Shown: positions 13,575 through 56,607, counted from the stretch's first letter. The stretch: DNA of 64,000 bases from Clostridium sp. CAG:288 (GCA_000437395.1 FR898166.1:58724-122723), one strand, 5' to 3'. The notes: a model not told the origin generated them from the sequence alone. Program-made: numbers and translations.

Positions 13575-13583
13575 GAGGTAAAT

Positions 13584-25600: not shown

Positions 25601-25750
25601 TTAAAGAATATCTCTGATGAGGCATATGTAAATCAATTAAGAGTATATTCTAATGCAGTAGAAAAAATATTTAGCTTAAAATCAGAGTGTTATTTATATT
25701 CTTTGTATGATGGGATTTTACAAAAGATTAATGTGGAGGATAAGAAATAA
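22694..25750 (+). CDS. addA: AddA ATP-dependent helicase/nuclease (UvrD-like SF1 helicase)
   Basis: Walker [11 protein letters not shown] near the N-terminus, UvrD-like motifs, 1018 aa, with a C-terminal nuclease region. Confidence 0.85.
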
Positions 25751-25752
25751 TT

Positions 25753-27000
25753 ATGATCGATGACAGAAAATTAAAAGAAGTTGATTATGAATTAGCTAAA
25801 GCTATTGAAGATGAAACAAGACGTCAGCAAGAGCATATAGAATTAATAGCAAGTGAAAACTACGTATCTGAGGCTGTTTTAGAGGCTCAAGGTTCAATTA
25901 TGACTAACAAGTATGCTGAAGGCTATCCAGGCCATAGATATTATGGTGGATGTGAATATGTCGATGTAGCTGAAAACCTTGCTAGGGATAGATTAAAAAA
26001 GTTATTTTCGGCTGCCTATGTTAACGTGCAACCTCATTCTGGTTCAGAAGCAAACTTAGCTGTTTATAGAGCACTTTTAAACCCTGGTGATAAAGTTTTA
26101 GGAATGTCTTTAGATCATGGTGGTCACTTAACTCATGGAAGTCCACTTTCGTTTAGCGGTCAAGACTATGAATGTCACTTTTATGGTTTAGATGAAAAAA
26201 CAGAGATGATTGATTATGATGAAGTAAGAAAAATCGCTCTTGAAATTAAGCCTAGAATGATAATTGCTGGTGCTTCAGCCTATCCTAGAAAAATTGACTT
26301 TAAAAAATTTAGAGAAATAGCTGATGAAGTCGGTGCATATTTATTTGTAGATATGGCGCATATTGCTGGCTTAGTTGCTGCAGGATTACATCAAAATCCA
26401 GTACCTTATGCCCACGTTGTGTCATCAACGACGCATAAAACTCTTAGAGGTCCACGAGGTGGGGTTATTTTAACAAACGATTTAGAATTAGGAAAAAGAA
26501 TAGATAAGATAGTTTTCCCAGGAGTTCAAGGTGGCCCACTTATGCATGTTATAGCTGCTAAAGCTGTTGCGTTTTATGAAGCCTTACAACCTGAGTTTAT
26601 AACTTATCAAAAACAAGTTATTGCTAATGCCAAAGCTTTAGCTAATAGACTTATTGAATTAGGTTATCACGTTATTTCTAACGGAACAGATAACCACCTT
26701 ATGCTTGTTGATGTTAAAAGCAAAACAAAACTAACGGGTAAGCAAGCTGAGAATATATTGCATAGCGTCAATATAACAGTTAATAAGAACTCTATTCCAA
26801 ACGATAAAGAAAAGCCATTTATTACTTCTGGAATAAGATTAGGATCTCCAGCGTGTACTACTCGTGGATTTAAAGAAGATGATATGATATTAGTAGCTGA
26901 TTTAATTGATAAGGCATTATCAGATCAATCGGAAAATAATTTAAAAGAAATTAAAGAGAAAGTATTAGAGCTTACTCATAAATATCCACTACCTTATTAG
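25753..27000 (+). CDS. glyA: serine hydroxymethyltransferase
   Basis: Highly conserved SHMT sequence: the PLP-lysine motif [12 protein letters not shown] plus LIASENY... and [14 protein letters not shown]. 415 aa. Confidence 0.95.
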
Positions 27001-27087
27001 TTTAAATTGCAAAAAGGTGTGATTTACTGCAAAAGTAGCAAACACATCTTTTTTTGTGATAGATTTATTAACATGAAAGGGGTATCA

Positions 27088-35126: not shown

Positions 35127-36347
35127 ATGCATAAACTTGTAATTGTTGACGATGAATATTTAGTTAGATTAGGGATTCGTGAAACCATTGATTGGGCAGC
35201 TAATGGAATTGAAGTAATTGGTGATGCATCCAATGGTAAACAAGGCTATGAAATGATTAAAGAACTAAATCCAGACTTAGTTATTACAGATATAAAAATG
35301 CCAATAATGAATGGTGTTGATTTAGTTAAAACTTTACACAAAGAAGGCTTTAATGGCGAAATAGTAGTTTTAAGTGGATATAAAGATTTTGAGTATGCCA
35401 AAGAAACATTTGAAAATGGAATATTTTCATATGTTGTAAAGCCTATCGATAACGATGAATTATTAGAGGTTGTTTTAAGAGCTGTTGCTAAGCTTGAACA
35501 AAAGATTAAAGATAGAACTTTAACTTCAAAAGTTCAAACAGAATTACCAACACTTCAAAGCGAATTTATGAAAAAACTTTTATCCAGTAATTCATTTGTA
35601 GGTTCTGATATTCCTAGCGAATTATCAAATCACGATATATCGCTTCCTACAAACGGAACTATGGCTTTAATATCTATCGAAGAAATGTTTAAATCAAAGA
35701 AATCTGAACTGAATATTTATATCAATTTATTGAAAGAAGCACTAAGCAAAGAAAAAATAGCTTTTGTTGATTTTGATTTTCAAGATTCAATAGTTATGTT
35801 TTTAAACTCTAACGATATTGAAAAAATATCCTTGATTTGCCGTGATACTTTTATTCCATTTGAGCAAAAGACTTTAACAGCTCTCACCGTTGGTTTAACG
35901 TTATACTCTTCGTTGGAATACATTCAAAAAACATATGAATCATGTTTAAAACTTGTTCAATCAAAACTTTTATTCCATTTAAATACTGTTGAGATGGAAT
36001 TAGATGATCAAACATCATATAGACATCGACAAAGTATTTCTCAGTTCTATTCTATAATTGCCGAAAAATATTCTACGCAATTAACAGTAAGATCAGTTTC
36101 TGATGAAATGAATGTTTCTGAATCATATTTAATGCATCTATTAAAAGACAATTTAGGAAAAACTTTTAATGAGATATTAACTGGCTATCGAATAGGAATA
36201 GCAAAGAGATTACTTTTAAGTGGAAAATATAGAATTAACGAGGTATCAGATAAAGTTGGATATATTGATGTTAAGTATTTTTCACAAGTATTTAAAAAGA
36301 TTGTCGGTGTGACTCCAAGTGATTATCAAGGGCACGATATAGGATGA
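35127..36347 (+). CDS. two-component response regulator, receiver + AraC-type HTH (YesN-like)
   Basis: Receiver motifs VIVDDE, VITDIKMP, VVKP. C-terminal AraC HTH ...YRIGIAKRLL...VGYIDVKYFSQVFKK. Confidence 0.85.
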   Translation: MHKLVIVDDEYLVRLGIRETIDWAANGIEVIGDASNGKQGYEMIKELNPDLVITDIKMPIMNGVDLVKTLHKEGFNGEIVVLSGYKDFEYAKETFENGIFSYVVKPIDNDELLEVVLRAVAKLEQKIKDRTLTSKVQTELPTLQSEFMKKLLSSNSFVGSDIPSELSNHDISLPTNGTMALISIEEMFKSKKSELNIYINLLKEALSKEKIAFVDFDFQDSIVMFLNSNDIEKISLICRDTFIPFEQKTLTALTVGLTLYSSLEYIQKTYESCLKLVQSKLLFHLNTVEMELDDQTSYRHRQSISQFYSIIAEKYSTQLTVRSVSDEMNVSESYLMHLLKDNLGKTFNEILTGYRIGIAKRLLLSGKYRINEVSDKVGYIDVKYFSQVFKKIVGVTPSDYQGHDIG

Positions 36348-38050
36348 AAAAGAGTAAAAAATTCCATTTTAGGACAAAAATGCTAGCTTTTGTTTCAGCT
36401 TTTTTGGGTGCTCTTTTTTTAATTATTATTATTGCTGTTCAAGTAGTTTCAAGCGTTTATACAGATAACTATGTAAAACATAATGTTTATGTGCAACAAA
36501 GCAATTTTGATCAATCAATAAACACTTTGTTAATTAATACAAATTTTAATTTAATTAAACTTTTTTCAAATGAAAACATTTCAGAGATTGATAAATCTAA
36601 TGAAAGTAGTAAAAACGAAGTTTTAATAGCTCAATATACAGAATTAAGTTTGAGTGATGAGCTTTATGATGGGGTGTCGTTATACTACAATGATAGTCTT
36701 ATTGCTGAAACAGAAAAGATGACTTATATAGAAAAAAAGCAAAGGGACTTAGTTATAAATTCGACAGAAAATTTAGTTTATATAGATACAGTAGAGCATA
36801 ACGGAACAAATAATTTGATTTTTGGAAAGAAAATAAACGACAATTACCTAGGCTTTATACATGTTAAAGAACAAGTTGTTTTGGATTTTTTAAGTAATAT
36901 TTTATCGTCTGGTTATTCGCTTTTAATTGCTAATGATAATCACATAGTTTCAGATCAAAAAAACGAATTGTCAGGAAGTTATTTATATGAATCAAACACT
37001 TTTAAAACTTCTAACGGTAGAAAATATTCAGTAAAGAAAATAAATGATGTGAAAAGCCTAATAATTGTTGAAGATATGAATAATATCAATAGTTCTTTTG
37101 CACTTTCTTGGAAGGTAGCTTCGATCATTCCTTATTCAGAGCTATTTTATCTTTTAGATGTCTTTAGATATATTCTTATAGCAACAGCTATTGTCATGTT
37201 ATCGATTTCTATCGTCATTTCTATTAAAGCTTCCTCATCGGTAGCTAAACCAATAAAAAACTTAGCAGATAAAGTAGATAATTTCAATCCAGAAAAACCA
37301 GAAGAATATGTATTAAAAAATGAAGTTAAAAAGGCTTCTACAAAAGATGAAATCTATATGCTTGAAGAATCGTACGATGCTATGATCGAAAGAATATACG
37401 AATTGATGGAAAAAAACATCAAAGATATGGATGAAAAAAGAAGACTTGAATTAGACTCTTTGCAACAACAAATTAATCCACATTTCTTATATAATACGTT
37501 AGATGCTATTGCCTGGATGGCTAAGATAAAAAAAGAGCCAGAAATAGAAAAACTAGTTATGTCATTAGCTAAATTTTTTAGAATTTCACTCCATCGTGGC
37601 GATACAATTATAACTGTCGGTGAAGAAATAGAACTTACCCAACATTATTTAGAAATTCAAGAAATTAGATTTCCAAATAGATTTGACATTACTTACGATA
37701 TAGATCCTAATGTAAAAAACTATAAAACTTTGAAATTATTACTTCAACCAGTTGTGGAAAACGCTATTAAATATGGCATGCAAGAACAATCAGGAACGAT
37801 TGTAATTTCAGTTAAAAAGATAGATGAAAACATTGTTTATAGTGTGAAAGATAACGGTGAAGGATTCGATGTGCCTAAAGATATGCTTTCTAGACCATAT
37901 GGTACTATGCAAGAAAATAGAAGTGGATATGGACTATTTAATATCAACGAGCGCATAAGACTTGAGTATGGTGCTGGGTATGGATTAAAAATAGATTCGG
38001 AAAAAGGTAAGGGAACTACAGTATATATAACTATCCCGATTAAAAAGTAG
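36344..38050 (+). CDS. sensor histidine kinase, YesM/LytS-type (His_kinase + HATPase_c)
   Basis: Hallmark QQINPHFLYNTLDAIAWMA H-box, G-box GYGLFNINERIRLEYGAGYGL, N-terminal TM, extracellular domain and a second TM. Start overlaps the regulator stop. Confidence 0.85.
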   Translation: MKKSKKFHFRTKMLAFVSAFLGALFLIIIIAVQVVSSVYTDNYVKHNVYVQQSNFDQSINTLLINTNFNLIKLFSNENISEIDKSNESSKNEVLIAQYTELSLSDELYDGVSLYYNDSLIAETEKMTYIEKKQRDLVINSTENLVYIDTVEHNGTNNLIFGKKINDNYLGFIHVKEQVVLDFLSNILSSGYSLLIANDNHIVSDQKNELSGSYLYESNTFKTSNGRKYSVKKINDVKSLIIVEDMNNINSSFALSWKVASIIPYSELFYLLDVFRYILIATAIVMLSISIVISIKASSSVAKPIKNLADKVDNFNPEKPEEYVLKNEVKKASTKDEIYMLEESYDAMIERIYELMEKNIKDMDEKRRLELDSLQQQINPHFLYNTLDAIAWMAKIKKEPEIEKLVMSLAKFFRISLHRGDTIITVGEEIELTQHYLEIQEIRFPNRFDITYDIDPNVKNYKTLKLLLQPVVENAIKYGMQEQSGTIVISVKKIDENIVYSVKDNGEGFDVPKDMLSRPYGTMQENRSGYGLFNINERIRLEYGAGYGLKIDSEKGKGTTVYITIPIKK

Positions 38051-38984
38051 GCAAATCTGAAATGTCTTCTTTCATGCTGGTTTTAAGTTTTATTAATTGA
38101 GTCTCTTTTCTTTTAGCAAATACGTTTGAAAGTAAAAGTAAGATAAAAATAATTAATATATCACTAGTTAAAATTCCAATTCCTGTTAATATAAGAGATT
38201 TTTCTATATTTATAGTTGGAACTGAAACAAATAAATAGAGAGGCAAAGAATCATTTTCTATAGTTGTTGCTATGGTATAGTTTTTGCCTTTCTTTTTTAT
38301 TTGCTCTGATTTAATAAATTCTAAGTGGTCATATTCGGTATTATAGTTAGCTAAAACTGTTCCGCTCTCACTGACAATTACAGCTTTATAGTTATTAAAA
38401 TATTGATAACTATCAAAATTGATGATTGTATCGTATATTGTGCTTGTATCAAAATCTATAATCAATAAAGAATTATTTTTGGTTTTAACTAAAAATGATA
38501 ATTGCCCAAGTTCTGGTGAATAAGGAACGAACCCATGAGTATTTGGTAACCCTTGCGTTCTAATGGCGAATGATGAAATTTGATTTGTATTGTAGAAATT
38601 AATAACTTCTGGATCTTTTATGACTTCCTCATAAGTTTTAACTTCGCCTAAGTTTGTAGAATTATAAATCATGCCATTTTGATAAAAGTAAGCTCCGATA
38701 ATCATCTCGTGTGAATTATAAATTTGATCGAGTTGCATCGCATATGATTCTGTATCGTAACTATTGACGTTATCAGCAAAAGAAAAAGCCTCAGAAGATA
38801 ATAATTCTAATTGTAGTTTGATACGTTCAGCGCAAAGTTTTGTATTTGTTGAAAAGTTATTTCTAAAGTCGTTGCTATATAAAAAGTATAATGAACTAAT
38901 AAGTACTATAGATATCAAAATTAAAAATATAGTAGGAACGATAAATAACGATAAAAAAATCTTCTTTTTAAGCTTTTTAAACAT
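38040..38984 (-). CDS. membrane protein with an extracytoplasmic domain flanked by two TM helices (sensor-domain-like, no kinase module)
   Basis: TM at residues ~10-35 and ~275-300 of a ~315-aa protein. The topology copies the N-terminal half of YesM-type kinases. Its stop overlaps the convergent HK stop by 11 nt. AAAGGA RBS before ATG 38984. Confidence 0.45.
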   Translation of the reverse strand: MFKKLKKKIFLSLFIVPTIFLILISIVLISSLYFLYSNDFRNNFSTNTKLCAERIKLQLELLSSEAFSFADNVNSYDTESYAMQLDQIYNSHEMIIGAYFYQNGMIYNSTNLGEVKTYEEVIKDPEVINFYNTNQISSFAIRTQGLPNTHGFVPYSPELGQLSFLVKTKNNSLLIIDFDTSTIYDTIINFDSYQYFNNYKAVIVSESGTVLANYNTEYDHLEFIKSEQIKKKGKNYTIATTIENDSLPLYLFVSVPTINIEKSLILTGIGILTSDILIIFILLLLSNVFAKRKETQLIKLKTSMKEDISDLPTF

Positions 38985-39174
38985 GTTTATATCCTTTGAT
39001 AAACAAATTATATCTAAATGTTTTAACAAATTAAATAATTTGCTTAATTAAGTTTTAAATATTTGCAGTATTATCGCCATTTTTGCAGTTTATTTAGCTT
39101 ATAAGATAGCCCTTACATTTTTATAATATATATAACTAGAAAGCTTATGCTTTTATGTCTAATGGAGGACATTT

Positions 39175-40584
39175 ATGAAGAAAATACATTCACGTTTAGC
39201 AAGTATGTTAGTTGCAGCAGCAACTATTAGTACATTAGCAGGTTGCGGTTCACATTCAGATAAAATTGAAATAACAATTGGTATGTGGCCACAAGCTGGA
39301 CTTACCCAAGAAGTTAATATGTTTAAAGTATGGAAAGAAAGATTTGAAACTGATCATCCAGAATATCAAATTAAGGCAGCTCCATATGAATATTCTATTG
39401 AAACAGCACAATCAAAAGGTCAATCACACACTTTACCAACTGTTTTCCAAACATGGTTTACTGAACCACAATGGTTAGTAAATGCTGGATATATCAAAGA
39501 CATCACTAGCTTCCTTAATGATTTGGGTTGGTATGACAAGATGGATGTCGATATGAGAAATAACCTCACATTTGAAGGGAAAGTTTACGGTATCCCAAGA
39601 GATGGTTATGGACTTGGACTTGTTTTAAATAAGAGAATTCTCGGTGAATGTGGTTTGTTACCTGAAAATGAAGATGGAACTTATTCAATCTATAACAAAG
39701 ATGGGTCGCCAGCATATCCAACTACTTTTGACGAAGTAAGACATTTTTCTGAAGTTATCGTCGATTCAACAGATAATACTAGAGGTATTTTGATTCCTTC
39801 TGCAAATAAAAATGGCGGTTGGCAATTTAGCAATATTGCCTGGAATTTCGGTGCTCAACTTGAAGTTCAAAATAGCGATGGAAAATGGGTTGGAACTTTA
39901 AACGATCCAAAAGCAGTTGAAGCCATGAATTGGATTAAAGAAATGAAATCTGATGGCTTATTAATTGATACAATCACCGTTAGTTACAACGATTGGTATG
40001 GAAAAATTAAGAGTCAAGTAGGTATGGCAATTGTCGGTAGCGATGTCGTTCAACTTGCCATTACAAATGCTAAATTAGCTAAAGAAGATTTAGCTTTTGT
40101 TCCAATGCCAGCAGGTCCATATGGAGATAGATATTCATTATATGGTGGTACTCCTTATGTCTTCTCATCAGATGCTAGCGATGAACAAGTTAAAGGCGCT
40201 ATGATGTTCTTAGAATATATGGGTAGATCACCAGACGCTACAGAAGCAAACTTAGCTGCTGTCACAGAGGGAAACGAAGTTGCATCCAAAAAGGGTGAAC
40301 CAATTATTCCATCTGTTAAACCTTGGACAGATGCTACCTATTTAGCCGCAACAAAAGAAATTGAAGATAAATATGTTAACGTCGATATGACTAACTTTAA
40401 CGATTTCTTTAATACACTTCCAACAATGAAACACAATGAAGTTTCTTATTACGCTCAAGAAATGTATAAGTTACTTGATAATGTCATTCAAAAGGTTTTA
40501 CAAAATCCAGATACAGTTAATGTTGAAAATGAATTAACAACTGCAAACAACACATTTAATTCTCAATATATGAGTCAATTATAA
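39175..40584 (+). CDS. sugar ABC transporter extracellular solute-binding lipoprotein (family 1 SBP)
   Basis: Lipobox LAGC. 469 aa. Lies in an operon with MalFG-type permeases. Confidence 0.8.
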   Translation: MKKIHSRLASMLVAAATISTLAGCGSHSDKIEITIGMWPQAGLTQEVNMFKVWKERFETDHPEYQIKAAPYEYSIETAQSKGQSHTLPTVFQTWFTEPQWLVNAGYIKDITSFLNDLGWYDKMDVDMRNNLTFEGKVYGIPRDGYGLGLVLNKRILGECGLLPENEDGTYSIYNKDGSPAYPTTFDEVRHFSEVIVDSTDNTRGILIPSANKNGGWQFSNIAWNFGAQLEVQNSDGKWVGTLNDPKAVEAMNWIKEMKSDGLLIDTITVSYNDWYGKIKSQVGMAIVGSDVVQLAITNAKLAKEDLAFVPMPAGPYGDRYSLYGGTPYVFSSDASDEQVKGAMMFLEYMGRSPDATEANLAAVTEGNEVASKKGEPIIPSVKPWTDATYLAATKEIEDKYVNVDMTNFNDFFNTLPTMKHNEVSYYAQEMYKLLDNVIQKVLQNPDTVNVENELTTANNTFNSQYMSQL

Positions 40585-40603
40585 TTGTCTCAAGGAGGGC
40601 AAT

Positions 40604-41581
40604 ATGTCAGTACAAAATGAAACTTTGACCCTCACACAAGATAACTATGTAAAGTTTTTACCAAAACAAGTATCGAAAGAGAAAAAAGGTATCAACAAGG
40701 CAATTTTAAAAAAGAATTTATCTGGTTGGTTATTGATGCTTCCAGGTATAGCATTATTTACATTCTTCGTGTGGGAACCACTTGTCATGAATGTAGTCTT
40801 ATCATTCTTTGAAGGCTACAACATGAAAGAATTTCAAGGCTTTGGAAACTATATAAAAATATTCCAAGATCCACAGTTCCAAGCAGCTTTTACTAACACG
40901 TTCAAATATATATTTTGGTCTTTAGTAATAGGTTTCTTGATTCCTGTTATTTTAGGAATTTTATTAAGTGAAGTTACAAGAGGACAATCGTTCTTTAGAA
41001 TTTGTATTTATTTACCATGTATTATTTCAGGTATTGCAGTTGCTTTCTTATTTAGACAACTTTACGATCCAGAATCTTTTTCAGTAATAAATACAATACT
41101 TCAAAAAATGGGCTTAAAAACATCGCTTCTAAGAGATGATAAAAATTTAGTTATTCCTCTTATTGTAGTTGCTATGACATGGCGTGGAGCAGGTGGTACT
41201 GTTTTAATCTATCTTTCAGCAATGCAAAGTATCGATAATAGCTTATATGAAGCTGTTAGAATTGATGGTGGTGGTTTAATGAAGAGATTTAGATATGTCA
41301 CTTTACCACACTTAAAGGGAACTATCACTTCGTTATTCATTATGCAAATTATCTCAGTCTTCCAAGTTTTCTATGAACCTATGGTTATTTCAAATGGTGG
41401 ACCAAATAACGCATCACTTTCCTTGATGTTATTAAGTTATAACTATGCTTTTGCTGATGCTAAACCTCAATTAGGTGCAGCTGTCGGCGTAATTCTATCA
41501 CTTATTATTCTTGCCTGTACTGGTGTCTATTACTTAGTTTTAAGACTTATAAATGGTAAACAAGTGGAGGCTAGAAGATGA
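40604..41581 (+). CDS. sugar ABC transporter permease (MalF/UgpA-like)
   Basis: Six TM helices. EAA-like loop EAVRIDGGGLMKRFRYVTLP. Confidence 0.85.
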   Translation: MSVQNETLTLTQDNYVKFLPKQVSKEKKGINKAILKKNLSGWLLMLPGIALFTFFVWEPLVMNVVLSFFEGYNMKEFQGFGNYIKIFQDPQFQAAFTNTFKYIFWSLVIGFLIPVILGILLSEVTRGQSFFRICIYLPCIISGIAVAFLFRQLYDPESFSVINTILQKMGLKTSLLRDDKNLVIPLIVVAMTWRGAGGTVLIYLSAMQSIDNSLYEAVRIDGGGLMKRFRYVTLPHLKGTITSLFIMQIISVFQVFYEPMVISNGGPNNASLSLMLLSYNYAFADAKPQLGAAVGVILSLIILACTGVYYLVLRLINGKQVEARR

Positions 41582-42474
41582 AAAAAGCAGTTAAACTTTC
41601 ACAAAAGACAAATGGATTACTAAATTTCCAAGATTATAAAAAAGCTAAATATAGAGTAGTTTACGGAATTATTATATTCGTATTAGTTTTAGCTGTTTTA
41701 ACAGCTTTAATTCCAATTTTCTGGTTGTTGATAACAAGCTTTAAAACGACAGATGAACTTTATTCTAATATTTATCATTTATTTCCAAAAGTGTTCGATA
41801 TAAGAAAAGTGGCTCAAGTTTGGCAAAAAGCAAACTTTATGCGTTATTTCTTAAATTCGGCTATAGTTGCAATTGGCGCTGTAGTATGCGCTGTTGTTTT
41901 TAACGGATTATTTGCATATGCTACTACTATTGTTAAACCAAAGGGATATAAAATTGCACACGCTTTAGTTATGTTAAGTTATATGATCCCAGCAGTTACA
42001 GCAATTATTCCACTTTATAGCAACATCATTAAGTTAGGAATGGTAAATAGTTACGTTCCATTAATGCTTATTTTAGGCGCTAATGCTTTCTATTATGTCA
42101 ACTTTAGAAATTACTTCAAAACAATACCAAATTCACTATTTGAAGCAGCAAAACTTGACGGATGTTCTGACTTGAGAATATTCGCTTCAATCGTTGTTCC
42201 AAACAGTAAACCAATTATTGGTGTTGTGGCTATATTTGCTATGACGGCAAGCTGGTCTGATTTCTTGTTGCCATACTTAATTTTAAATGATCAAGAAATG
42301 TACACTGTTATGGTTCAAATATTCTCAGTAAACGCTACAATTTCTCAAGGCGCTTATACTTATGATGAATTTTTGATGTTATTAATGATTTCTATATTAC
42401 CACAATTGATTTTTTTCTTTGTTTTCCAAAAACAAATTACGAACTCTCAAACAACAAGTGGATTAAAGGACTAA
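41578..42474 (+). CDS. sugar ABC transporter permease (MalG/UgpE-like)
   Basis: EAA loop EAAKLDGCSDLRIFASIVVP. Start overlaps the upstream stop. Confidence 0.85.
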   Translation: MKKAVKLSQKTNGLLNFQDYKKAKYRVVYGIIIFVLVLAVLTALIPIFWLLITSFKTTDELYSNIYHLFPKVFDIRKVAQVWQKANFMRYFLNSAIVAIGAVVCAVVFNGLFAYATTIVKPKGYKIAHALVMLSYMIPAVTAIIPLYSNIIKLGMVNSYVPLMLILGANAFYYVNFRNYFKTIPNSLFEAAKLDGCSDLRIFASIVVPNSKPIIGVVAIFAMTASWSDFLLPYLILNDQEMYTVMVQIFSVNATISQGAYTYDEFLMLLMISILPQLIFFFVFQKQITNSQTTSGLKD

Positions 42475-42478
42475 TATT

Positions 42479-44752
42479 ATGGGAAAAGAAGCAACTAAAT
42501 ATTTAAAAGAAGATTCTTTCAAGATTATTGAAGAAGGATTACATCTAGATAGATTAAAAGTATCTGAATCTATTTTCTCTTTAGCTAATGAATATACTGG
42601 TATTCGTGGAAGCTTTGATGAAGGATCAGATAGTCTTGATTCGTTACGTGGCTCATATTTCAATGGGATATATGAGTATGCTAAAAAAGATACTCCATCA
42701 GCATATTTAGGCATTGTTAAAAGAACACACTTCATGATTAACTCTGTCGATTGGACAAAGGTTAAAATTGTTTGTTTAAATCAAAAATTAGATTTAGGTA
42801 AAGTAAAGTTTTCTAAATTCTATAGAGAATTAGACATGCAAAGTGGTCTTTATACAAGATCGTTTACTTGGAAAGTTACTGAAGGTAAGCATATCGATAT
42901 TTGTTTTGAAAGACTTTTATCAATGACCGAATGTCATAAAGTGTTCCAAGTAATTACTTTAAAAACTAATTTTGATTGTAAAGTCGATTTAGAGTTGAGC
43001 TTAAATAGCAATGTACTTCACTGGGGACAAGATTGCTATTGGGATAGAAAAGACGAATTTGTTACTGACGAAAATATATACGCATTAAGAGTTAATACTC
43101 AAACAACAAATCAAAAGCTTGTTAGTACTATGCTTATTAACGGCATAGATAATCAAGAAACTTTTATTGATGATAAAGAAATTACTTGTGTTTGTAGTTT
43201 GCTATTAAAAGCTAATGAAACAAGAAAAATTGAAAGATATGTTGTAAACATTATCGATAAAAACAATACTGCAACTTTTGATGAAATGTTAATTGAAGCA
43301 AAAAATGAAGTAAAAGCCTCTAAGGAACATGGATTTGAATATTATCTTGATTTGAATAAAAAATACTGGGCAGATGTTTGGCATAGATCCGACATTGTTA
43401 TTGATGGATCACTTATCGATCAACAAGGCATTAGATTCTGTATATTCCAATTAGAACAAACTTATCACGGATATGCAATGACTGATAATATTGGCGCTAA
43501 GGGTTTAACTGGTGAAGCCTATAGTGGACATGCTTTCTGGGATAGTGAAACTTATTGCTTGCCATATTATTTATTCCACAATACAGAAGCAGCAAAAGAT
43601 TTGCTTTTATTCAGATATAATACATTAAAACAAGCAAAAGAAAGAGCTAAGGCTTTAGACTGCAAAGGAGCTTGTTATCCAATAGCTACTTTAAATGGTG
43701 AAGAAGGTTGTAACTTATGGCAACATGCTTCACTTCAATTTCAACCTTCAACAGCCGTTGCATATGGTATTTATCACTATATGCGTTTGACAAACGATGT
43801 TGATTTTTTAAAGAAATATGGAATAGAAATGCTTTTAGAAATTTCTCAATTCTTATTAACACGTGGTCAATGGGATCAAAAGCACGAATATTTTGGATTC
43901 TATGCAGTTATGGGACCTGATGAATTCCAAATGATGGTTAACCATAACACATATACAAACTACATGGCTAAAAAGACTTTCGATTATACTTTAGATTTAA
44001 TTGAAAAATATAAAGATGATGCAGAAGTTTCAAATAGAGTTAAAGAACTTGGATTTGATGAAACTTTCTTAAAAGATATTCGCCATGCTAGCGAGCACAT
44101 GAAAATATTAAAAGACAACAAAACTGGATTATATGAACAACATGAAGGTTTTTTTAATCTTCCACATATTGATGTCGATTCAATTCCTGTTAATGATTTC
44201 CCATTATATTCGCATTGGTCATACGATAGAATTTATAGAAACGACATGATAAAACAACCTGATGTTTTGATGTTTATGTTTTTATACTCAAGTGAATTTT
44301 CGTTGGCTGAAAAGAAAGTTAACTATGATTATTATGAACCACGTTGTATTCATGAATCAAGTTTATCACCTTCTATTCACTCTATTTTTGCAAATGAATT
44401 AGGCTATGAACAACAAGCATTAGACTTCTTTGGATTTGCTACAAGAATGGATTTAGATGATTATAACCGTAATACATGCGAAGGATTACACATGACATCA
44501 ATCGCTGCTGGATTTATGAATATCGTCTACGGATTCGGTGGCTTAAAGAGCGATGGAGAAATGCTTGAACTTGCTCCAACACTTCCAAAGATTTGGAACT
44601 CATATTCTTTCTCAATTGTTTATCACGGTTCAGTTTTAAAAATAGATGTTAAAAGAGAAAACGTTACAATAATTTGTCACGGTAACAAAGTGACATTAAA
44701 GTTATATGGCAATGTTGTAACAATTAAAGATAAAATTATTGTTGAGCGTTAA
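42479..44752 (+). CDS. glycoside hydrolase family 65 alpha-glucoside phosphorylase (maltose/kojibiose/nigerose/trehalose phosphorylase family)
   Basis: 757 aa with GH65 N-terminal, central (alpha/alpha)6 and C-terminal domains. Motifs include GAKGLTGEAYSGHAFWDSETY. Confidence 0.85.
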   Translation: MGKEATKYLKEDSFKIIEEGLHLDRLKVSESIFSLANEYTGIRGSFDEGSDSLDSLRGSYFNGIYEYAKKDTPSAYLGIVKRTHFMINSVDWTKVKIVCLNQKLDLGKVKFSKFYRELDMQSGLYTRSFTWKVTEGKHIDICFERLLSMTECHKVFQVITLKTNFDCKVDLELSLNSNVLHWGQDCYWDRKDEFVTDENIYALRVNTQTTNQKLVSTMLINGIDNQETFIDDKEITCVCSLLLKANETRKIERYVVNIIDKNNTATFDEMLIEAKNEVKASKEHGFEYYLDLNKKYWADVWHRSDIVIDGSLIDQQGIRFCIFQLEQTYHGYAMTDNIGAKGLTGEAYSGHAFWDSETYCLPYYLFHNTEAAKDLLLFRYNTLKQAKERAKALDCKGACYPIATLNGEEGCNLWQHASLQFQPSTAVAYGIYHYMRLTNDVDFLKKYGIEMLLEISQFLLTRGQWDQKHEYFGFYAVMGPDEFQMMVNHNTYTNYMAKKTFDYTLDLIEKYKDDAEVSNRVKELGFDETFLKDIRHASEHMKILKDNKTGLYEQHEGFFNLPHIDVDSIPVNDFPLYSHWSYDRIYRNDMIKQPDVLMFMFLYSSEFSLAEKKVNYDYYEPRCIHESSLSPSIHSIFANELGYEQQALDFFGFATRMDLDDYNRNTCEGLHMTSIAAGFMNIVYGFGGLKSDGEMLELAPTLPKIWNSYSFSIVYHGSVLKIDVKRENVTIICHGNKVTLKLYGNVVTIKDKIIVER

Positions 44753-44756
44753 TAAT

Positions 44757-46889
44757 ATGAAATTAGAAAAACAAGGACTTGATTTAGAACAAGTTAAAAG
44801 TTTAGGTGATACCTTTGTCATTGGTAATGGACATTTGGGCTATCGTGGAACTTTAGAAGAATATACTAAATCACAAGGAGTTGGATTAAACATTGTTGGT
44901 TTTTATGATCGCTATAGTTCTAAATGGAGAGAATCTGTAAATGTCGCCAATCCAATATATATTAAAAGCTATTTTAATGATAAATGTTTATCTGTTTTAG
45001 AAAATACTCCTTTAAATCACAATATTACTCTTGATACTGAAAAGAGAGTATTTTCACGAAAGACAGAATTTGACGATGCAATTATTACTTCATCAAGATT
45101 TGTTTCTGCGACTAAAGACAACTTAATTGGATTCGAATACAAATTAACTGCTAAAAGTGCAGGAGAATATTCAATTTTAGCTGGAATTGATGCATTAATT
45201 GATGAAATTAACGGTCCTCACTTTGCTACAAAAAAAGTCTACAGAAAAGAAGAACTTATTATTTTTGAAGGTCAAACAAACGAATCAAAAGTAGCATATG
45301 TAAAACTAAAGCTTATTTGTGATTCAGATTATATTGAAAAAAAAGAAGAAAACTATCGCTTAACCAATGAATATAAGAAGAATCTAGAAGCTGGAGAAAG
45401 CATTTGTTTAGTTGGAGTCGCTGATATTGAAGCTAATGACTTTATTGATGAAACAATAGATATTTCTTCATATGAGCTTAAAGATTATTTAAATTTAAAA
45501 GATGAACATATAAAAGAGTGTTTAGCTCAATGGAGTATTTCACAAGTTGTTATTGATGGACCTAAAGATGCACAAGAGGGTTTAGATTATTCAATTTATC
45601 AACTATTAAGTATCGCTCCACATAAATACATAACTTCTATACCTGCTCGTGGTGTAAGTGGTCAAACTTATAAAGGCGCTATTTTCTGGGACACAGAAGT
45701 CTTCATGCTTCCATTTTATATTTTAACTAATCCAAGTGTTGCTAGAGGTTTAGTTGAGTATAGAATTAAAGGCTTAAAAGGTGCTAAAAAGAAGGCTAAA
45801 GACTTTGGCTTTAGAGGAGCTTTTTATGCTTGGGAAAGTCAAGAAGAAGGTTATGAAGCCTGCTCTTTATATAATATTACTGATGCCAAAACAGGTGAAC
45901 CTATTAGAACATATTTTGCTGATAAACAAATTCATATTAGCGCTGATGTAATAAAAGCTTTATTCGATTATTCAACTAGAACAAATGACTATACACTTTT
46001 AAATCACGGTGGATTAGAAGCAGCTTTAGAAGTTGCTAGATTTTATTTATCTTATTCTTCTATAGATAAAAACGGCGTCTATCATTTAAATGATGTCATA
46101 GGTCCTGATGAATATCACGAAAGAATAAACGACAACACGTTTACAAACTATTTAGTTAAAGACGTAATTAGTAAAACATTAAAGTATTTTAATGAGTTAA
46201 AAGAAAAATCACCATATAAAGCCAGTAAGCTTTTAACAAAAATTAAAATGAGTGAAAAAGAACTTGATGACATTATAAAGTTTGAAAATAATATTTATAT
46301 TCCAAGTACTAACGATATTATTGAACAATTTAATGGCTATTTTGCTCTTGAAGATGTTAAAGTTGAAGATGTTAGAAAAAGATTGACTACCGCAAATGAG
46401 TATTGGGGAAAAGAAGCTTCAAAAACTCGAGTTATTAAACAGGCAGATGTCATAACACTTCTAGCTTTATACCCACGAGATTTTTCATTAGATATTGCTC
46501 AAAGAAACTTTAACTTCTATGAACCTTATACTGAACATGGAAGTTCATTAAGTGCATCGATGCATTCACTTGTTGCAAGCAGAATTGGATTAAAAGATAA
46601 AGCGTATCAATTCTTTATGAAAACAGCATTAGCAGATTTAGGTGAAAGTACAAAGAAATATGCTGGTGGCATTTATATTGGTGGCACTCATCCTGCAGCT
46701 AATGGTGGAGCATATTTATCGGCTATATTTGGTTTCGCCGGTTTAACATATGACGGTGCTAAAATTAAGCTTCAACCACACTTGCCAACAGAAATAAATT
46801 CGTTGACATTTAAATTTTATGAAAATAAAAAAGTATATGAGGCTAACGTTACAAAAGATAGCTATATTATCAAGGAGGTAAAGCTATGA
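44757..46889 (+). CDS. second GH65 family phosphorylase (paralogue)
   Basis: Equivalent motifs RGVSGQTYKGAIFWDTEVF. Start uncertain: TTG at 44739 overlapping the upstream gene, or ATG at 44757. Confidence 0.8.
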   Translation: MKLEKQGLDLEQVKSLGDTFVIGNGHLGYRGTLEEYTKSQGVGLNIVGFYDRYSSKWRESVNVANPIYIKSYFNDKCLSVLENTPLNHNITLDTEKRVFSRKTEFDDAIITSSRFVSATKDNLIGFEYKLTAKSAGEYSILAGIDALIDEINGPHFATKKVYRKEELIIFEGQTNESKVAYVKLKLICDSDYIEKKEENYRLTNEYKKNLEAGESICLVGVADIEANDFIDETIDISSYELKDYLNLKDEHIKECLAQWSISQVVIDGPKDAQEGLDYSIYQLLSIAPHKYITSIPARGVSGQTYKGAIFWDTEVFMLPFYILTNPSVARGLVEYRIKGLKGAKKKAKDFGFRGAFYAWESQEEGYEACSLYNITDAKTGEPIRTYFADKQIHISADVIKALFDYSTRTNDYTLLNHGGLEAALEVARFYLSYSSIDKNGVYHLNDVIGPDEYHERINDNTFTNYLVKDVISKTLKYFNELKEKSPYKASKLLTKIKMSEKELDDIIKFENNIYIPSTNDIIEQFNGYFALEDVKVEDVRKRLTTANEYWGKEASKTRVIKQADVITLLALYPRDFSLDIAQRNFNFYEPYTEHGSSLSASMHSLVASRIGLKDKAYQFFMKTALADLGESTKKYAGGIYIGGTHPAANGGAYLSAIFGFAGLTYDGAKIKLQPHLPTEINSLTFKFYENKKVYEANVTKDSYIIKEVKL

Positions 46890-48736
46890 TAAAAGGATTT
46901 GTTTTTGATCTTGATGGTGTTTTAGTTTTCACGGATCACTTTCACTATCTTTCTTGGAAAGCAATTGCTGATGAAGAAGGAATAGAATTTAACGAACAAA
47001 TAAATAATCAATTAAGAGGTGTTTCACGTAAAGATTCTTTAGAAATTATATTAAGAAAAGCTTCAAAGACTTATACCGAAGATGAAAAAGATGCTCTTTG
47101 TGAAAAAAAGAACAACATTTATAAGACTTATTTAGATACAATGTCTGAAAAAGATGTTGATCCTGATACTATAGAAACATTAAAGCAACTTAAAGCTCAA
47201 GGATACAAAATAGCTTTAGGCTCCTCTAGTAAAAATGCTAAGTACATATTAAATAAAGTTGGGTTAACTCCTTATTTTGATGCAATTTCAGATGGCGTTG
47301 GCTTAGTTCATTCAAAACCAGATCCAGAAGTCTTCCTCAAAGCTAGCGATATGCTAAAGATTAACCCTAAAGAGCTTGTTGTAGTCGAAGATGCTGAAGC
47401 AGGAATTAACGCCGCAAACGCTGGAAAATTTATCAGTGTTGGCATAGGTGAAGCTAGCAAGTATGAAAAGACACAAATCAGCATTGAAAGATTTTCTGAT
47501 TTATTAAAAGTTGCTAAAGCAAATTCAGGTATTGTTATTGAAGATTTATGCAAAGAATATACACCTGGAGTAAAAGCAGTTAAAGATGTAAATCTTGTCA
47601 TTAACGACAAAGAATTTTTAGTTTTAGTTGGCCCTTCTGGTTGTGGTAAATCAACTATTTTAAGAATGATTGCAGGACTAGAAGAAATTAGTGGTGGTAG
47701 AATTTACATTGGTGGTAAATTGATAAATGATGTTGAACCAAAAGATAGAAACATCGCTATGGTTTTCCAGAATTACGCTTTGTTCCCAAATATGACTGTC
47801 GCACAAAATATCGGCTTTTGTCTTAAGATTTCTAAAGTGTTAAGAGAAAAAGATTACAAGTGTCCAACAAGTCCTAAAAAGCTTAGAAACTTATGGTATA
47901 AGGTACAGTATCCATTTGTAAAAAAACTTAAGTATAGACATTTGAAAAAAGAAGAAATTGATGAAAAAGTTAAATCAGTTGCTGAAATTTTAGGATTAAC
48001 ACAATACTTAGATAGAAAACCTGGGCAATTGTCTGGTGGTCAAAGACAAAGAGTCGCTCTAGGTAGAGCAATTATTAGAAATCCAGAAGTATTCTTATTT
48101 GATGAACCTCTTTCTAACCTTGATGCTAAAATGAGAGCAACAATGAGAACTGAAATTACAAAGTTACATAATAGACTTCAAACGACATTTATTTATGTTA
48201 CTCACGATCAAGTTGAAGCTATGACAATGGGTACAAAGATTGTTGTTTTGAAAGATGGTGTCGTTCAACAATATGATACTCCAGCTAATATTTATAATAG
48301 ACCAGCTAATAAATTTGTCGCTGGCTTTATTGGAACTCCACAAATGAACTTTATTGATGCTAAATATATAAATAGCCAACTAACAATTGGATCTAAAACT
48401 ATCGATTTAACTAAAGAGTTCTTGGCTAACCAAGACGTTGAATCTTTAGGAGGAGGCAACGTTTGTGTTGGTATTAGACCTAGATCAGTTAAAGTTATGG
48501 ATCAAGAAGGATATGATGAAAAATACGCTTTTGAAGGTACTGTTAATGTTTCAGAACAGCTTGGTGATGAAGTATTGCTCTATTTAACTGTTGAAGGTAA
48601 AGATGGAGACTTTACAATAGCTGGCAACCCAAAGAAACAATACAAAATTGGCGATAAAGTTAAGTTCTCGATTAATCCAAATGAGATTCATTTGTTTAAC
48701 CCTGTAACAGAAAAGACATTATATATTTCTAAATAA
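46886..48736 (+). CDS. fusion protein: beta-phosphoglucomutase (HAD-IA) N-terminal domain + MsmK/MalK-type ABC transporter ATP-binding domain
   Basis: The N-terminus carries the HAD DxD motif FVFDLDGVLVFTD and the ...VVEDAEAGINAANAG motif typical of beta-PGM. From residue ~220 there are Walker A GPSGCGKST, signature LSGGQRQRV, Walker B LLFDEPLSNLD, and a C-terminal MalK-like regulatory domain. No start codon separates the two halves. Confidence 0.7.
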   Translation: MIKGFVFDLDGVLVFTDHFHYLSWKAIADEEGIEFNEQINNQLRGVSRKDSLEIILRKASKTYTEDEKDALCEKKNNIYKTYLDTMSEKDVDPDTIETLKQLKAQGYKIALGSSSKNAKYILNKVGLTPYFDAISDGVGLVHSKPDPEVFLKASDMLKINPKELVVVEDAEAGINAANAGKFISVGIGEASKYEKTQISIERFSDLLKVAKANSGIVIEDLCKEYTPGVKAVKDVNLVINDKEFLVLVGPSGCGKSTILRMIAGLEEISGGRIYIGGKLINDVEPKDRNIAMVFQNYALFPNMTVAQNIGFCLKISKVLREKDYKCPTSPKKLRNLWYKVQYPFVKKLKYRHLKKEEIDEKVKSVAEILGLTQYLDRKPGQLSGGQRQRVALGRAIIRNPEVFLFDEPLSNLDAKMRATMRTEITKLHNRLQTTFIYVTHDQVEAMTMGTKIVVLKDGVVQQYDTPANIYNRPANKFVAGFIGTPQMNFIDAKYINSQLTIGSKTIDLTKEFLANQDVESLGGGNVCVGIRPRSVKVMDQEGYDEKYAFEGTVNVSEQLGDEVLLYLTVEGKDGDFTIAGNPKKQYKIGDKVKFSINPNEIHLFNPVTEKTLYISK

Positions 48737-48743
48737 TTAAATC

Positions 48744-48782
48744 AATCCATTTAGTAATCATATTGCTAGATGGATTTTTTAA
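48744..48782 (+). terminator. putative rho-independent terminator after the sugar operon
   Basis: AATCCAT ... ATGGATT stem followed by TTTTTT. Confidence 0.45.
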
Positions 48783-48818
48783 TAGGTAATATAATTATGT
48801 TTAGTAGGAGGTATTTTT

Positions 48819-50279
48819 ATGCCATGTACAACGATATTAGTAGGTAAAAAAGCTAGCAATGATGGCTCAACAATGATTGCTAGAAACGATGATGGAAGAT
48901 TTGATGTTAAAAAAATAAAGGTTGTTGAAAAAGATAAACAACCTAGAAAATATGTAAGTAAAATTTCACATGTTGAAGTTGAATTACCAGAACATTCTTT
49001 AAGATATACAACTTGTCCAAACGTCGATCCTAAATATGGAATTTGGGCTGCTACTGGGATAAATGAAGCAAATGTTGGAATGAGTGCTACAGAGACTATC
49101 ACAACAAATGCTCGCGTCTTAGGTGGTGATCCTTACGTTAAGTGCGAAAAGAAAAGTAAAGGTAAAGATGAAGTTAAGGGTGGAATTGGTGAAGAAGATT
49201 TAGTTGTTTTAGTATTACCATATATTCATTCTGCAAGAGAAGGTGTCCTTAGACTCGGAAGACTTCTTGAAAAATATGGAACATATGAGCCAAATGGAAT
49301 AGCATTTAACGATAAAAATGAAGTTTGGTGGTTAGAAACAATAGGTGGACATCACTGGATTGCTAAAAGAGTAAAAGATGAAGAATATGTTATAATGCCA
49401 AATCAATTTGGATTAGACAATTTTGACTTTGAAGACGCTTTTAATGAAGGAAAAGAAAATCTTTGTTCCAAAGACTTGTTAGAATTTATTAAAGACAACA
49501 ATTTAGATCTAGAAGAATCAAAAGAATTTAATCCACGTGTTGCTTTTGGAAGTCACTCTGATGCTGATCACGTTTATAACACTCCACGTGGTTGGTATAT
49601 GGCAAGATATTTTAATCCAAAAACTTATAAGTGGGAAGGTGATAATGCTGACTTTACACCAGAAAGTGATGATATACCTTGGAGTTTAGTTCCAGAAAAA
49701 AAGATAACTATTGAAGATGTTAAATATATTTTGTCTTCATATTACCAAGGAACAAACTATAATCCATATTTAAAACACGATTATCCAGAAAAAGGAAAGT
49801 ATCGTCCAATAGGAATTAGTAGAACTGGTGTTATGGCTATTTGCCAAATTAGAAACAATGTTCCAGAAGAAATTAGCGCAGTTGAATGGCTTTGCTTCGG
49901 ATCTAATGCTTTTAACGTTTGCATACCTTTATATACAAATGTCGATAAGATGCCAAATTATGTTAGCAATGTTTCTTTAGATGTTTCGGTAGATAATTTC
50001 TATTGGGCAAGTAGATTGATTGGCGTTTTATGTGATGCTCATTATAGTAATTGTCTTATTTATGTTGAGAGATATCAAAATACAGTTGCTGCACTAGCTA
50101 GACAACACATAAAAGAATTTGATGAAAAATATATTAAATCATTAGATACTAACTTGTTGTCTAAAGCTAACGAAGAACTATGCAAGAAAGTTAAAGTTGA
50201 ATCACAAAATTTAATCAATACTTTAACTCTTGTGTGCTCGCAAGAAATGAAAAACGGATATTCACGATTCGATAATTAA
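48819..50279 (+). CDS. C69 family dipeptidase
   Basis: N-terminal nucleophile context MPCTTILVGKKASNDGSTMIARNDD is typical of the C69 (PepD/dipeptidase A) family. 486 aa. Confidence 0.8.
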   Translation: MPCTTILVGKKASNDGSTMIARNDDGRFDVKKIKVVEKDKQPRKYVSKISHVEVELPEHSLRYTTCPNVDPKYGIWAATGINEANVGMSATETITTNARVLGGDPYVKCEKKSKGKDEVKGGIGEEDLVVLVLPYIHSAREGVLRLGRLLEKYGTYEPNGIAFNDKNEVWWLETIGGHHWIAKRVKDEEYVIMPNQFGLDNFDFEDAFNEGKENLCSKDLLEFIKDNNLDLEESKEFNPRVAFGSHSDADHVYNTPRGWYMARYFNPKTYKWEGDNADFTPESDDIPWSLVPEKKITIEDVKYILSSYYQGTNYNPYLKHDYPEKGKYRPIGISRTGVMAICQIRNNVPEEISAVEWLCFGSNAFNVCIPLYTNVDKMPNYVSNVSLDVSVDNFYWASRLIGVLCDAHYSNCLIYVERYQNTVAALARQHIKEFDEKYIKSLDTNLLSKANEELCKKVKVESQNLINTLTLVCSQEMKNGYSRFDN

Positions 50280-55602: not shown

Positions 55603-56607
55603 ATGGCTACATTTGAAAACTCCGAACGTCGTGCAGCTGGCATTGCCGCATGCTGTGCAAAATATGGCATCAAGGATTTAGACGAAGCAAGAGAAATTTG
55701 CTTAGCTCATGGAATTGATGTTGAAAAAATAGTTAAAGGTGTTCAACCAATTTGTTTCGATAACGCTGTTTGGGCTTATACACTTGGTGTTGCAATCGGC
55801 TTAAAAGAAGGTGTTAAGACAGCTGTTAAAGCTAGTGAACTTATTGGTGTTGGTCTCCAAGCTTTCTGTGTTCCTGGTTCTGTTGCCCAAGTTCGTGAAG
55901 TCGGCTTAGGTCATGGTAACTTAGGTGCTATGTTATTAAGTGAAGAAACAAAATGCTTCTGCTTCTTAGCAGGTCACGAATCATTTGCTGCTGCTGAAGG
56001 TGCAATTGGTATTGCTCGTAACGCAAACAAAGCAAGAAAAACTCCATTAAAGGTTATCTTAAATGGTTTAGGAAAAGATGCTGCTTACATCATTTCAAGA
56101 ATCAATGGTTTTACATATGTCCAAACAGATTATGATTTTGCAACATCTGAACTTAAGATTGTTAGAGAAGTTAAATTCTCTGATGGCGAAAGAGCCAACA
56201 TTCGTTGCTATGGTGCAAACGACGTTTCTGAAGGTGTTGCTATTATGCAATATGAAGATGTCGACGTTTCCATCACTGGTAACTCTACAAACCCAACTAG
56301 ATTCCAACATCCAGTTGCTGGTACATATAAAAACTGGGCTTGGTCTCATGGTAAGAAGTATTTCTCAGTCGCTTCAGGTGGCGGTACTGGTAGAACACTT
56401 CACCCAGACAACATGGCCGCTGGTCCATCTTCTTATGGCTTAACAGATACCATGGGAAGAATGCACGCTGATGCACAATTTGCTGGTTCTTCATCAGTTC
56501 CTGCTCACGTTGAAATGATGGGTCTCATCGGTATGGGTAATAACCCAATGGTCGGTGCCACAGTTAGCTGCGCAGTTGCTGTCTACGAAGCAAACAAAGA
56601 TAAGTAA
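55603..56607 (+). CDS. GGGtGRT family protein (conserved, function unknown)
   Basis: 334 aa containing the eponymous motif ASGGGTGRTLHPDNMAAGP. Family identity and its usual pairing with a NifU-like gene are from memory. Confidence 0.65.
   Translation: MATFENSERRAAGIAACCAKYGIKDLDEAREICLAHGIDVEKIVKGVQPICFDNAVWAYTLGVAIGLKEGVKTAVKASELIGVGLQAFCVPGSVAQVREVGLGHGNLGAMLLSEETKCFCFLAGHESFAAAEGAIGIARNANKARKTPLKVILNGLGKDAAYIISRINGFTYVQTDYDFATSELKIVREVKFSDGERANIRCYGANDVSEGVAIMQYEDVDVSITGNSTNPTRFQHPVAGTYKNWAWSHGKKYFSVASGGGTGRTLHPDNMAAGPSSYGLTDTMGRMHADAQFAGSSSVPAHVEMMGLIGMGNNPMVGATVSCAVAVYEANKDK

Follow-up and report, generated by a model that had tools for sequence, protein, structure and literature searches.

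The stretch of DNA analysed here, a 64,000-nucleotide window from Clostridium sp. CAG:288 (FR898166.1, 58724-122723), carries at 46886..48736 on the + strand a gene that joins a beta-phosphoglucomutase (bPGM) to an ATP-binding cassette (ABC) ATPase of the MalK/MsmK type. An earlier examination, made from the DNA alone and called here the sequence-only reading, had described it as one uninterrupted coding sequence, and translation bore this out: the locus is a single open reading frame (ORF) of 616 aa, opened by an ATG, whose sole stop is the terminal one (the stop codon lies inside the coordinates). The ATG overlaps the TGA of the preceding gene, which encodes a GH65 enzyme (ATGA). The G+C content is 30.4% and the genes are tightly packed, and such overlaps are typical of sequence of this kind. 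A terminator-like hairpin stands right behind the stop codon, and the fusion gene closes the operon. The junction region, from codon 156 to codon 261, lacks in-frame ATG, GTG and TTG codons, and 47400-47650 contains nothing that resembles a Shine-Dalgarno sequence. Because the Walker A motif falls within this start-free interval, at residues 249-256, the ATPase is translatable only as part of the fusion, in agreement with the earlier statement that neither stop nor start separates the domains. Rfam and tRNA scans of the window gave zero matches, and a promoter scan, which returned fewer matches than shuffled sequence, was not used.

Both domain assignments of the sequence-only reading were upheld by profile matches. 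For the N-terminal half, residues 2-188 match the bPGM equivalog model of NCBIfam (TIGR01990) with 231.5 bits against a cutoff of 189.4, covering all 187 profile positions, and residues 1-190 align end to end with the Lactococcus lactis enzyme (1LVH, 146 bits). The nucleophile D8 and the general acid/base D10, which lie within FDLDGV (HAD motif I, DxD), as well as S113, K144 and E168-D169, correspond in the alignment to L. lactis D8, D10, S114, K145 and E169-D170, and motifs II (Ser/Thr), III (Lys) and IV (ED) are all present. The cap hinge residues T16 and H20 and the distal-phosphate residues G45, R48, S115, K116 and N117 are also kept (L. lactis G46/R49 and S116/K117/N118). The nucleophile, acid/base, Mg and phosphate ligands are thus common to this half and to L. 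lactis PgmB (1LVH and other structures), and the only change among the positions compared is that of L. lactis K45 to R44. In an alignment of 82 family members R44 is invariant, and so are the catalytic and ligand positions with the exception of K116, conserved in at least 90% of them. The cap helices were predicted with a pLDDT of about 90 in the AF2 model. PgmB is a free monomer of 221 aa, whereas the C-terminal bPGM helix of the window protein enters the ABC ATPase after three residues.

Residues ~217-612 match models of the UgpC/MalK type. NF008653 was barely passed (439.9 bits, cutoff 432) and the MalK equivalog NF008233 was not reached (384.5 bits, cutoff 568), so that by its profile scores this half is MalK-like but not a MalK orthologue. 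Pfam recognised ABC_tran followed by OB_MalK (PF17912) at 483-532 and TOBE_2 (PF08402) at 528-604. Walker A (GPSGCGKS, 249-256; nt 47630-47653), the Q-loop (Q295), the signature LSGGQ (382-386; nt 48029-48043), Walker B (D406-E407) and the H-loop (H440) are present, and these motifs are invariant across the 82 family members. Both halves look active, and an inactive, sensor-like bPGM appears unlikely.

Compared with solved structures, the C-terminal ~400 residues fit MsmX (6YIR) and other MalK-type chains with Foldseek target TM values of 0.85-0.91 over about 400 columns. The best matches to residues 216-612 were MsmX of Bacillus subtilis (6YIR) and Clo1313_2554 of Clostridium thermocellum (7X0Q), with 401 and 344 bits and target TM values of 0.89-0.91. 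These two and MsmK have the ATPase motifs and the OB/TOBE regulatory domain in common with the window protein; they are standalone, about 365 aa long and without an insert in the helical subdomain, whereas the window protein is fused and operon-encoded. E. coli MalK likewise shares the fold and the order of nucleotide-binding domain (NBD) and regulatory domain, with neither insert nor N-terminal enzyme domain. The window protein therefore departs from the usual free ATPase of ~360-380 aa, whose helical subdomain is uninterrupted, by an N-terminal enzyme region of 215 aa and an insert of 35 aa, and all ATPase profiles and all solved MalK-like chains align to it in two blocks (217-321 and 348-612). 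The genes of MsmX and MsmK sit apart from transporter operons. Both are 'multitask' ATPases. MsmX serves several transporters, and its residues D77, R104, E110 and K154 have been proposed, tentatively, as a signature of such ATPases (PMC7658222). In the ungapped alignment blocks these positions correspond to N289, S316, E357 and E401, E110 alone being kept. The loss of three of the four residues fits an ATPase dedicated to its own operon, the signature itself being tentative. In the 64-kb window no second pair of CUT1 permeases was found, and the one other ABC ATPase is unrelated.

An AF2 model of the whole protein, computed from the 82-sequence alignment, had a mean pLDDT of 90.6 and a pTM of 0.70. 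In this model the bPGM part closes with a helix that reaches to A212 and the NBD opens with a strand from I216, giving a predicted linker of three residues. A Foldseek search of the PDB recovered only chains of the MalK/MsmX type, none of them covering both halves.

The fusion is not confined to this assembly. Clustering at 90% identity puts the exact window protein in a group of 270 sequences. They come from many independent contigs of different assemblies, and one of them, CDE16676.1, is itself named 'Clostridium sp. CAG:288'. At least 110 further 90%-identity clusters have the same architecture, at 50-69% identity to the window protein, and nearly all of the best 120 homology matches are full-length proteins of 578-616 aa in which the HAD and ABC_tran Pfam domains are both present. 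A frameshift cannot be common to proteins that have diverged to this degree, and on these comparisons the fusion is real and old. The search for recurrence that the sequence-only reading had proposed was thus positive, since fusion and insert both recur in relatives, the fused architecture down to 50% identity. The frameshift near 47530 that it had suggested might hide a stop and start was not found, the same ORF being present on many independent contigs. Clustering at 50% reduced the fusion family to about three representatives among 1.84 billion proteins, so that, by its sequences, it is one compact family and not a widespread architecture. Its members carry names such as 'Coprobacillus sp. 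CAG:826', 'Bacilli bacterium' and 'Firmicutes bacterium'. CAG:288, like CAG:826, is a family of the order RFN20 (PMC10868615), a lineage that the literature predicts to be without peptidoglycan (wall-less). In public records the names cover just one half, 'beta-phosphoglucomutase' in some cases and 'ABC transporter ATP-binding protein' in others, and no description of a bPGM-ABC ATPase fusion was found in the open-access full-text literature.

A scan of contigs with the family alignment returned no fused locus; generic MsmK genes dominated and the patterns lay in the ATPase core. Two candidates were rejected. The protein P0113 (363 aa, 73% identity), considered as a standalone insert-free paralogue, comes from a chimeric assembly or a recombinant allele: its contig (L082, NODE_4566, 3452 bp, 1.08x coverage) corresponds to 47947-50200 of the window with 95.6% identity from 47947, the match begins at the exact 3' edge of the insert, and upstream lies unrelated DNA with an insert-free NBD start. 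The locus L075, considered as a second fusion because residues 1-613 were matched (35%), holds a separate HAD gene that is not a bPGM, followed by a standalone MsmK gene. In this uncultured Eubacteriales genome (L075, 10001-12019) the HAD-family gene encodes 248 aa with a DKDG motif and lies 87 nt upstream of MsmK, so that adjacency of HAD and MsmK genes without fusion exists outside the fusion family too.

On the metagenome contig L087 a 211-aa bPGM ends with TAATAA, followed by AGGAGG, 9 nt and the ATG of a 438-aa MsmK (P0170), which carries a 13-aa form of the insert. The two proteins, their order and their frame are those of the fusion, at 55-64% identity to fused family members, but a stop, a ribosome-binding site and a start take the place of the linker and two polypeptides result. 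When the ATPase part is placed in a neighbour-joining tree, the split form lies inside the clade of fused proteins with the 13-aa insert, beside P0117, which suggests a secondary fission. P0159, a fused protein of the same gene cassette, has no insert. Its place in the tree is with ordinary MsmKs, and this suggests either a domain replacement or another fusion that happened independently. P0020 and P0021 are fused and also without insert; insert and fusion are thus separable. Linkers across the family are about 2 to 15 residues long and share no conserved sequence. The split locus, P0159, the variable linker and the unfused E. coli genes ycjU and ycjV (see below) together indicate that the fusion would arise easily from adjacent genes and could be undone, the direction of the individual events being provisional.

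The order solute-binding protein, permease, permease, GH65 (~750 aa), GH65 (~700 aa), fusion is conserved in five loci of different family members; in the window the upstream genes of this cassette occupy 39175-46889 (Table 1). The association with GH65 phosphorylase genes put forward by the sequence-only reading is therefore confirmed by gene context. Among the solved chains nearest to the two GH65 enzymes, 6W0P is called 'kojibiose phosphorylase' by its depositors, 3WIQ is kojibiose phosphorylase, and 4KTP/4KTR were deposited merely as a GH65 catalytic domain; we take the latter to be the 2-O-alpha-glucosylglycerol phosphorylase of Bacillus selenitireducens. Judged from these nearest relatives, the imported sugar is probably an alpha-1,2-type (kojibiose-type) alpha-glucoside. 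Its motifs, fold and operon setting place the C-terminal half of the fusion with the CUT1-type importer ATPases. No other bPGM gene was seen in the cassette across the loci examined. The two-component system upstream likely regulates the locus.

Table 1. Coordinates of the fusion gene, its parts and the accompanying genes and signals (positions counted from the first letter of the window).
Feature	Positions	Strand	Remarks
Two-component system (AraC-type helix-turn-helix response regulator; His_kinase/HATPase_c sensor)	35127..38050	+	Travels with the cassette in relatives
Putative solute-binding protein, 469 aa	39175..40584	+	Assigned by conserved cassette position
Two BPD_transp_1 permeases (40604-41581 and 41578-42474)	40604..42474	+	Pfam; membrane partners of the ATPase half
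GH65 enzyme 1, 757 aa	42479..44752	+	Closest solved chain 6W0P (894 bits); presumed producer of beta-glucose-1-phosphate
GH65 enzyme 2, 716 aa	44739..46889	+	Closest solved chains 4KTP/4KTR, and 3WIQ
Ribosome-binding site AGGAGG	46871..46876	+	9 nt upstream of the fusion-gene ATG
Fusion ORF, bPGM::MsmK-type ATPase	46886..48736	+	616 aa, stop included
bPGM domain (HAD-IA), residues 1-212	46886..47521	+	TIGR01990, 1LVH alignment, invariant columns, AF2 pLDDT ~90
Linker N213-S214-G215	47522..47530	+	Between last bPGM helix (205-212) and first NBD strand (216-226), AF2
ABC nucleotide-binding domain, residues 216-482	47531..48331	+	Profile matches, motifs, fold
Insert V318-H352, 35 aa	47837..47941	+	Helical-subdomain loop between helix 1 and helix 2
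C-terminal MalK-type regulatory domain (OB_MalK, TOBE_2), residues 483-616	48332..48733	+	Pfam; MsmX/MalK fold match
Terminator-like hairpin (15 pairs), then T-run	48744..48785	+	Right behind the fusion stop codon

The closest parallel is the ycj cluster of E. coli K-12, in which ycjT (kojibiose phosphorylase), ycjU (bPGM) and ycjV (ABC ATPase) follow each other in this order, in an operon with ycjNOP (PMC11543891). We compared the gene order directly: between the separate genes ycjU and ycjV lie 13 nt. Common to both clusters are the set of components and the local order GH65, bPGM, MalK-type ATPase, together with a solute-binding protein and two permeases, and YcjU is 40% identical to the bPGM half. 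The differences are that ycjV is a pseudogene in K-12, that the E. coli cluster also holds dehydrogenases/epimerase (ycjQRS), a GH13-type phosphorylase (ycjM) and a porin (ompG), none of which is in the window cassette, and that the latter has two GH65 genes. From its gene content, the window cassette is one that works like the ycj cluster without being a member of it, and it also resembles in its working the sugar importers energised by MsmX/MsmK.

On this basis we consider it probable that the gene encodes a bifunctional protein, derived by fusion of a neighbouring pgmB gene and the operon's own MalK/MsmK-type ATPase gene. Two subunits of the fusion would dock through their ATPase halves on the two permeases and power the import of an alpha-glucoside delivered by the solute-binding protein. 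The GH65 enzymes would then split the sugar with phosphate to glucose and beta-glucose-1-phosphate (beta-G1P), and the N-terminal bPGM domains, tethered at the inner face of the membrane by the three-residue linker, would turn beta-G1P into glucose-6-phosphate for glycolysis. The fusion would ensure 1:1 co-expression and membrane co-localisation of bPGM in a compact genome with overlapping genes. Mechanistically it would be dispensable, since the linker at the junction is unconstrained and relatives appear to have split it or formed it independently. Several points weigh against this account. The putative solute-binding protein gave zero Pfam or NCBIfam matches, which bears on the identity of the transported sugar, the first GH65 enzyme and the characterised E. 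coli YcjT share only 25% identity, and it is presumed that the two GH65 enzymes act as phosphorylases and not as hydrolases. The direction of fission and of independent fusion depends on a single neighbour-joining tree without support values, and the split form is known from a single 2.7-kb contig. In addition, pTM values of 0.70-0.81 hint at a defined orientation of bPGM and NBD, possibly a real interface, and the retention of the fusion in nearly all of the at least 110 clusters could reflect selection for coupling instead of neutrality.

The second departure from standalone ATPases is the insert in the helical subdomain. The sequence-only reading had placed it between the Q-loop and the signature motif, and both this position and the very peptide it quoted held when measured against insert-free relatives: 35 aa, residues 318-352, unmatched in ATPase models and in solved chains. 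Together with its two flanking residues (316-352) the segment has a net charge of +10 and many aromatics. In the ungapped alignment blocks it falls between the equivalents of MsmX R104 and E110. In E. coli MalK the same site would be the L102-K107 loop (K106) at the N-terminus of helix 2. R104 and E110 of MsmX are near, not within, the surface that binds the coupling helices of the permeases (PMC7658222). A structure prediction of the insert had also been suggested, and AF2 returned a loop (316-331, pLDDT ~70) followed by a single helix (332-369, pLDDT 78-84 over the helical part of the insert), so that helix 2 of the helical subdomain is predicted to be extended N-terminally by ~20 residues in the window protein.

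We scored the state of the insert in the 82 family members from the distance between flanking invariant positions. It is absent from only two, P0020 and P0021. An addition of 13 aa (14 in one member), with the conserved sequence IPFKxFFDFKYRKxRK, occurs in 71 of the 82, and the remaining nine carry 35/36 aa: the window protein, P0010, P0011 and P0014-P0019, which make up the whole sub-clade holding the window. The tail of the long form, LKYRHLKKEE, resembles that of the short form, FKYRKxRKEE, and because the tails match, the long form looks like a further expansion of the 13-aa form. By this comparison the long insert is a lineage-specific enlargement of an element held by most of the family. 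The insert had at first appeared to be a peculiarity of the window protein; with its core in 71 of 82 members and the long form throughout the sub-clade, it is not, and other MsmK lineages have inserts of their own, unrelated ones, at the same place. The sequence-only reading had itself named commonness among the MsmK proteins of this clade as an observation that would speak against it, and such commonness is what the alignment shows. In the AF2 model of a short-form protein (P0097; pTM 0.81) the 13 aa form a short turn and a helix extension of ~7 residues, with pLDDT of 86-91. HMMER places both LKISKV and LKYRHLKKEEI on one MsmK segment. An origin of the insert by local tandem duplication was considered and found unsupported, the DNA having just one 12-nt imperfect repeat.

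Most likely the insert would make an extra contact, either with the permeases of its own transporter or with the membrane surface. This role is favoured because the insert is basic and aromatic and, in the model, lies at the membrane-facing end of helix 2, which it lengthens at the edge of the surface turned towards the permeases. It is less likely, although still to be weighed seriously, that the long insert is a neutral expansion of a structurally permissive loop in an AT-rich, fast-evolving, reduced genome. The MsmK-like proteins P0162, P0163, P0175, P0185, P0202 and P0268, from outside the family, have in the same loop inserts of +18 to +40 aa that are unrelated to this one; the loop is, by these alignments, a general insertion hot spot, as a neutral origin would have it. 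Two family members do without an insert, the model is least confident here (pLDDT ~70 for 311-330), and in the other long-insert members insert identity falls to 14-17% while that of the flanking NBD is 66-74%. Nevertheless the length of 35/36 aa is maintained throughout that clade, where basic and aromatic residues recur (by inspection), and few non-catalytic segments of the family are better conserved than the 13-aa core. Moreover, the two closest relatives have an insert identity of 66-74%, which equals that of the bPGM half and exceeds that of the regulatory domain (46%). The insert-free loci L086 and L088 differ in their transporter genes. Their permease 2 (L086 2473-3603, L088 2232-3623) is longer at its N-terminus by a hydrophobic stretch, about +80 and +165 aa in excess of window 41578-42474, and NBD insert and permease architecture may covary, a weak lead from two cases only. 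Their solute-binding proteins match SBP_bac_1/8, unlike that of the window, and the transporter parts of insert-bearing lineages would therefore be unusually divergent.

Another reading gives the fusion itself a function. The sequence-only reading held that it physically couples uptake with conversion of beta-G1P, and we find this claim, an inference only, not supported as stated. In stronger versions the fusion would have been selected as the two halves cooperate: bPGM, perhaps with bound GH65 enzymes, would channel beta-G1P at the transporter (a transport metabolon), or its substrate or phospho-state would feed back on ATP hydrolysis, the insert touching the bPGM of the partner subunit in the head-to-tail, ATP-bound dimer. 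In ABC dimers the helical subdomain of one NBD does adjoin the N-terminal beta-subdomain of its partner. The maintenance of the fusion over deep divergence speaks for such cooperation, as do the very short linker of the window protein, the pTM values of 0.70 and 0.81, which suggest a non-random arrangement of the domains, and the strong conservation of the 13-aa insert together with its high predicted confidence. We nonetheless regard selection for cooperation as improbable. Insert and fusion occur without each other (fused without insert in P0020/P0021 and P0159, split with insert in P0170 of L087), and the linker is of variable length. The GH65 phosphorylase step, which stands between import and bPGM, is carried out by separate proteins outside the fusion. 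The split locus within the fused clade and the probably independent fusion of P0159 weaken the claim as well, and E. coli has an equivalent gene set with ycjU and ycjV unfused. Its most specific form, a membrane-bound metabolon in which the insert contacts the trans bPGM in the ATP-bound dimer and import and beta-G1P conversion would be allosterically linked, seems more doubtful still; if true, it would represent a coupling of carbohydrate uptake to the first committed metabolic step independent of the phosphotransferase system, in wall-less gut Bacilli.

It is very unlikely that the bPGM-like domain has ceased to be an enzyme and either senses sugar phosphates or is an inert attachment to the ATPase. 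The family-wide replacement of L. lactis K45 by R44 would agree with such a loss, and regulatory add-ons are common on MalK-type ATPases, the C-terminal regulatory domain being one example. Yet this replacement is conservative, the bPGM score exceeds the equivalog cutoff, D8, D10, T16, H20, S113, K144 and E168-D169 are invariant in the 82 sequences, and the cassette shows no other bPGM gene for the beta-G1P made by the GH65 enzymes. Finally, a sequencing or assembly artefact, in which a frameshift or chimera masks a stop and start between two genes, is refuted by the recurrence of the 616-aa ORF on many independent contigs and of its architecture at 50-69% identity. Nothing in the window favours it; a chimera-like join inside this gene was seen in one low-coverage contig, L082.

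These results describe a fusion that is real, conserved and uncharacterised, made of well-understood parts and most likely of mundane origin. To our knowledge it is rare for a metabolic enzyme to be fused to an ABC importer's ATPase, and this fusion is fixed across a lineage of abundant, uncultured bacteria of the human and animal gut (RFN20). It acts as a strong 'Rosetta stone', linking one particular CUT1 transporter with the GH65/beta-G1P pathway, and it draws attention to a locus for alpha-glucoside utilisation that is conserved and uncharacterised. Current annotation obscures this, as names taken from a single half hide the function of the other. The fused, split, insert-free, 13-aa and 35-aa forms together constitute a natural experiment on enzyme tethering and loop enlargement and on what either does to transport or flux.

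Other genes accompany the cassette. In the window, two GH28-like beta-helix proteins and an 860-aa protein without Pfam or NCBIfam match are encoded at 27007-28911, 29026-31680 and 31711-34293, the second GH28-like protein having an F5/8 type C domain and a lipoprotein-like N-terminus. The GH28-like pair, the 860-aa protein and the two-component system are also found with the cassette in relatives, at positions that differ by genome; in L083 and L084 the GH28-like proteins are encoded downstream of the fusion gene. The whole looks like one conserved polysaccharide-utilisation regulon. A divergent ORF of 329 aa (38040-39029, - strand) gave zero Pfam/NCBIfam matches. Outside the fusion family, many MsmK-like proteins of 500-850 aa (P0161-P0164, P0175, P0185, P0202) combine an N-terminal ATPase with an uncharacterised C-terminal extension of ~100-370 aa, and in several the helical-subdomain loop is again interrupted by an unrelated insert.

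Elsewhere in the window, large ORFs of 892, 521 and 703 aa at 17543-20224 (- strand) and 4761-8434 (+ strand) had zero Pfam matches, and a GGGtGRT family protein (PF14057) is encoded at 55603-56607, among small ORFs without family match and downstream of an MgtE transporter gene. The region 9782-15272 carries type IV pilus/competence-like genes (a protein with an N-terminal methylation motif, T2SSF and a T2SSE ATPase), in a lineage predicted to lack peptidoglycan. Ordinary housekeeping context is provided by an AddAB-like pair at 20421-25750 (a PD-(D/E)XK nuclease protein and a UvrD-type helicase), followed by serine hydroxymethyltransferase at 25753-27000.

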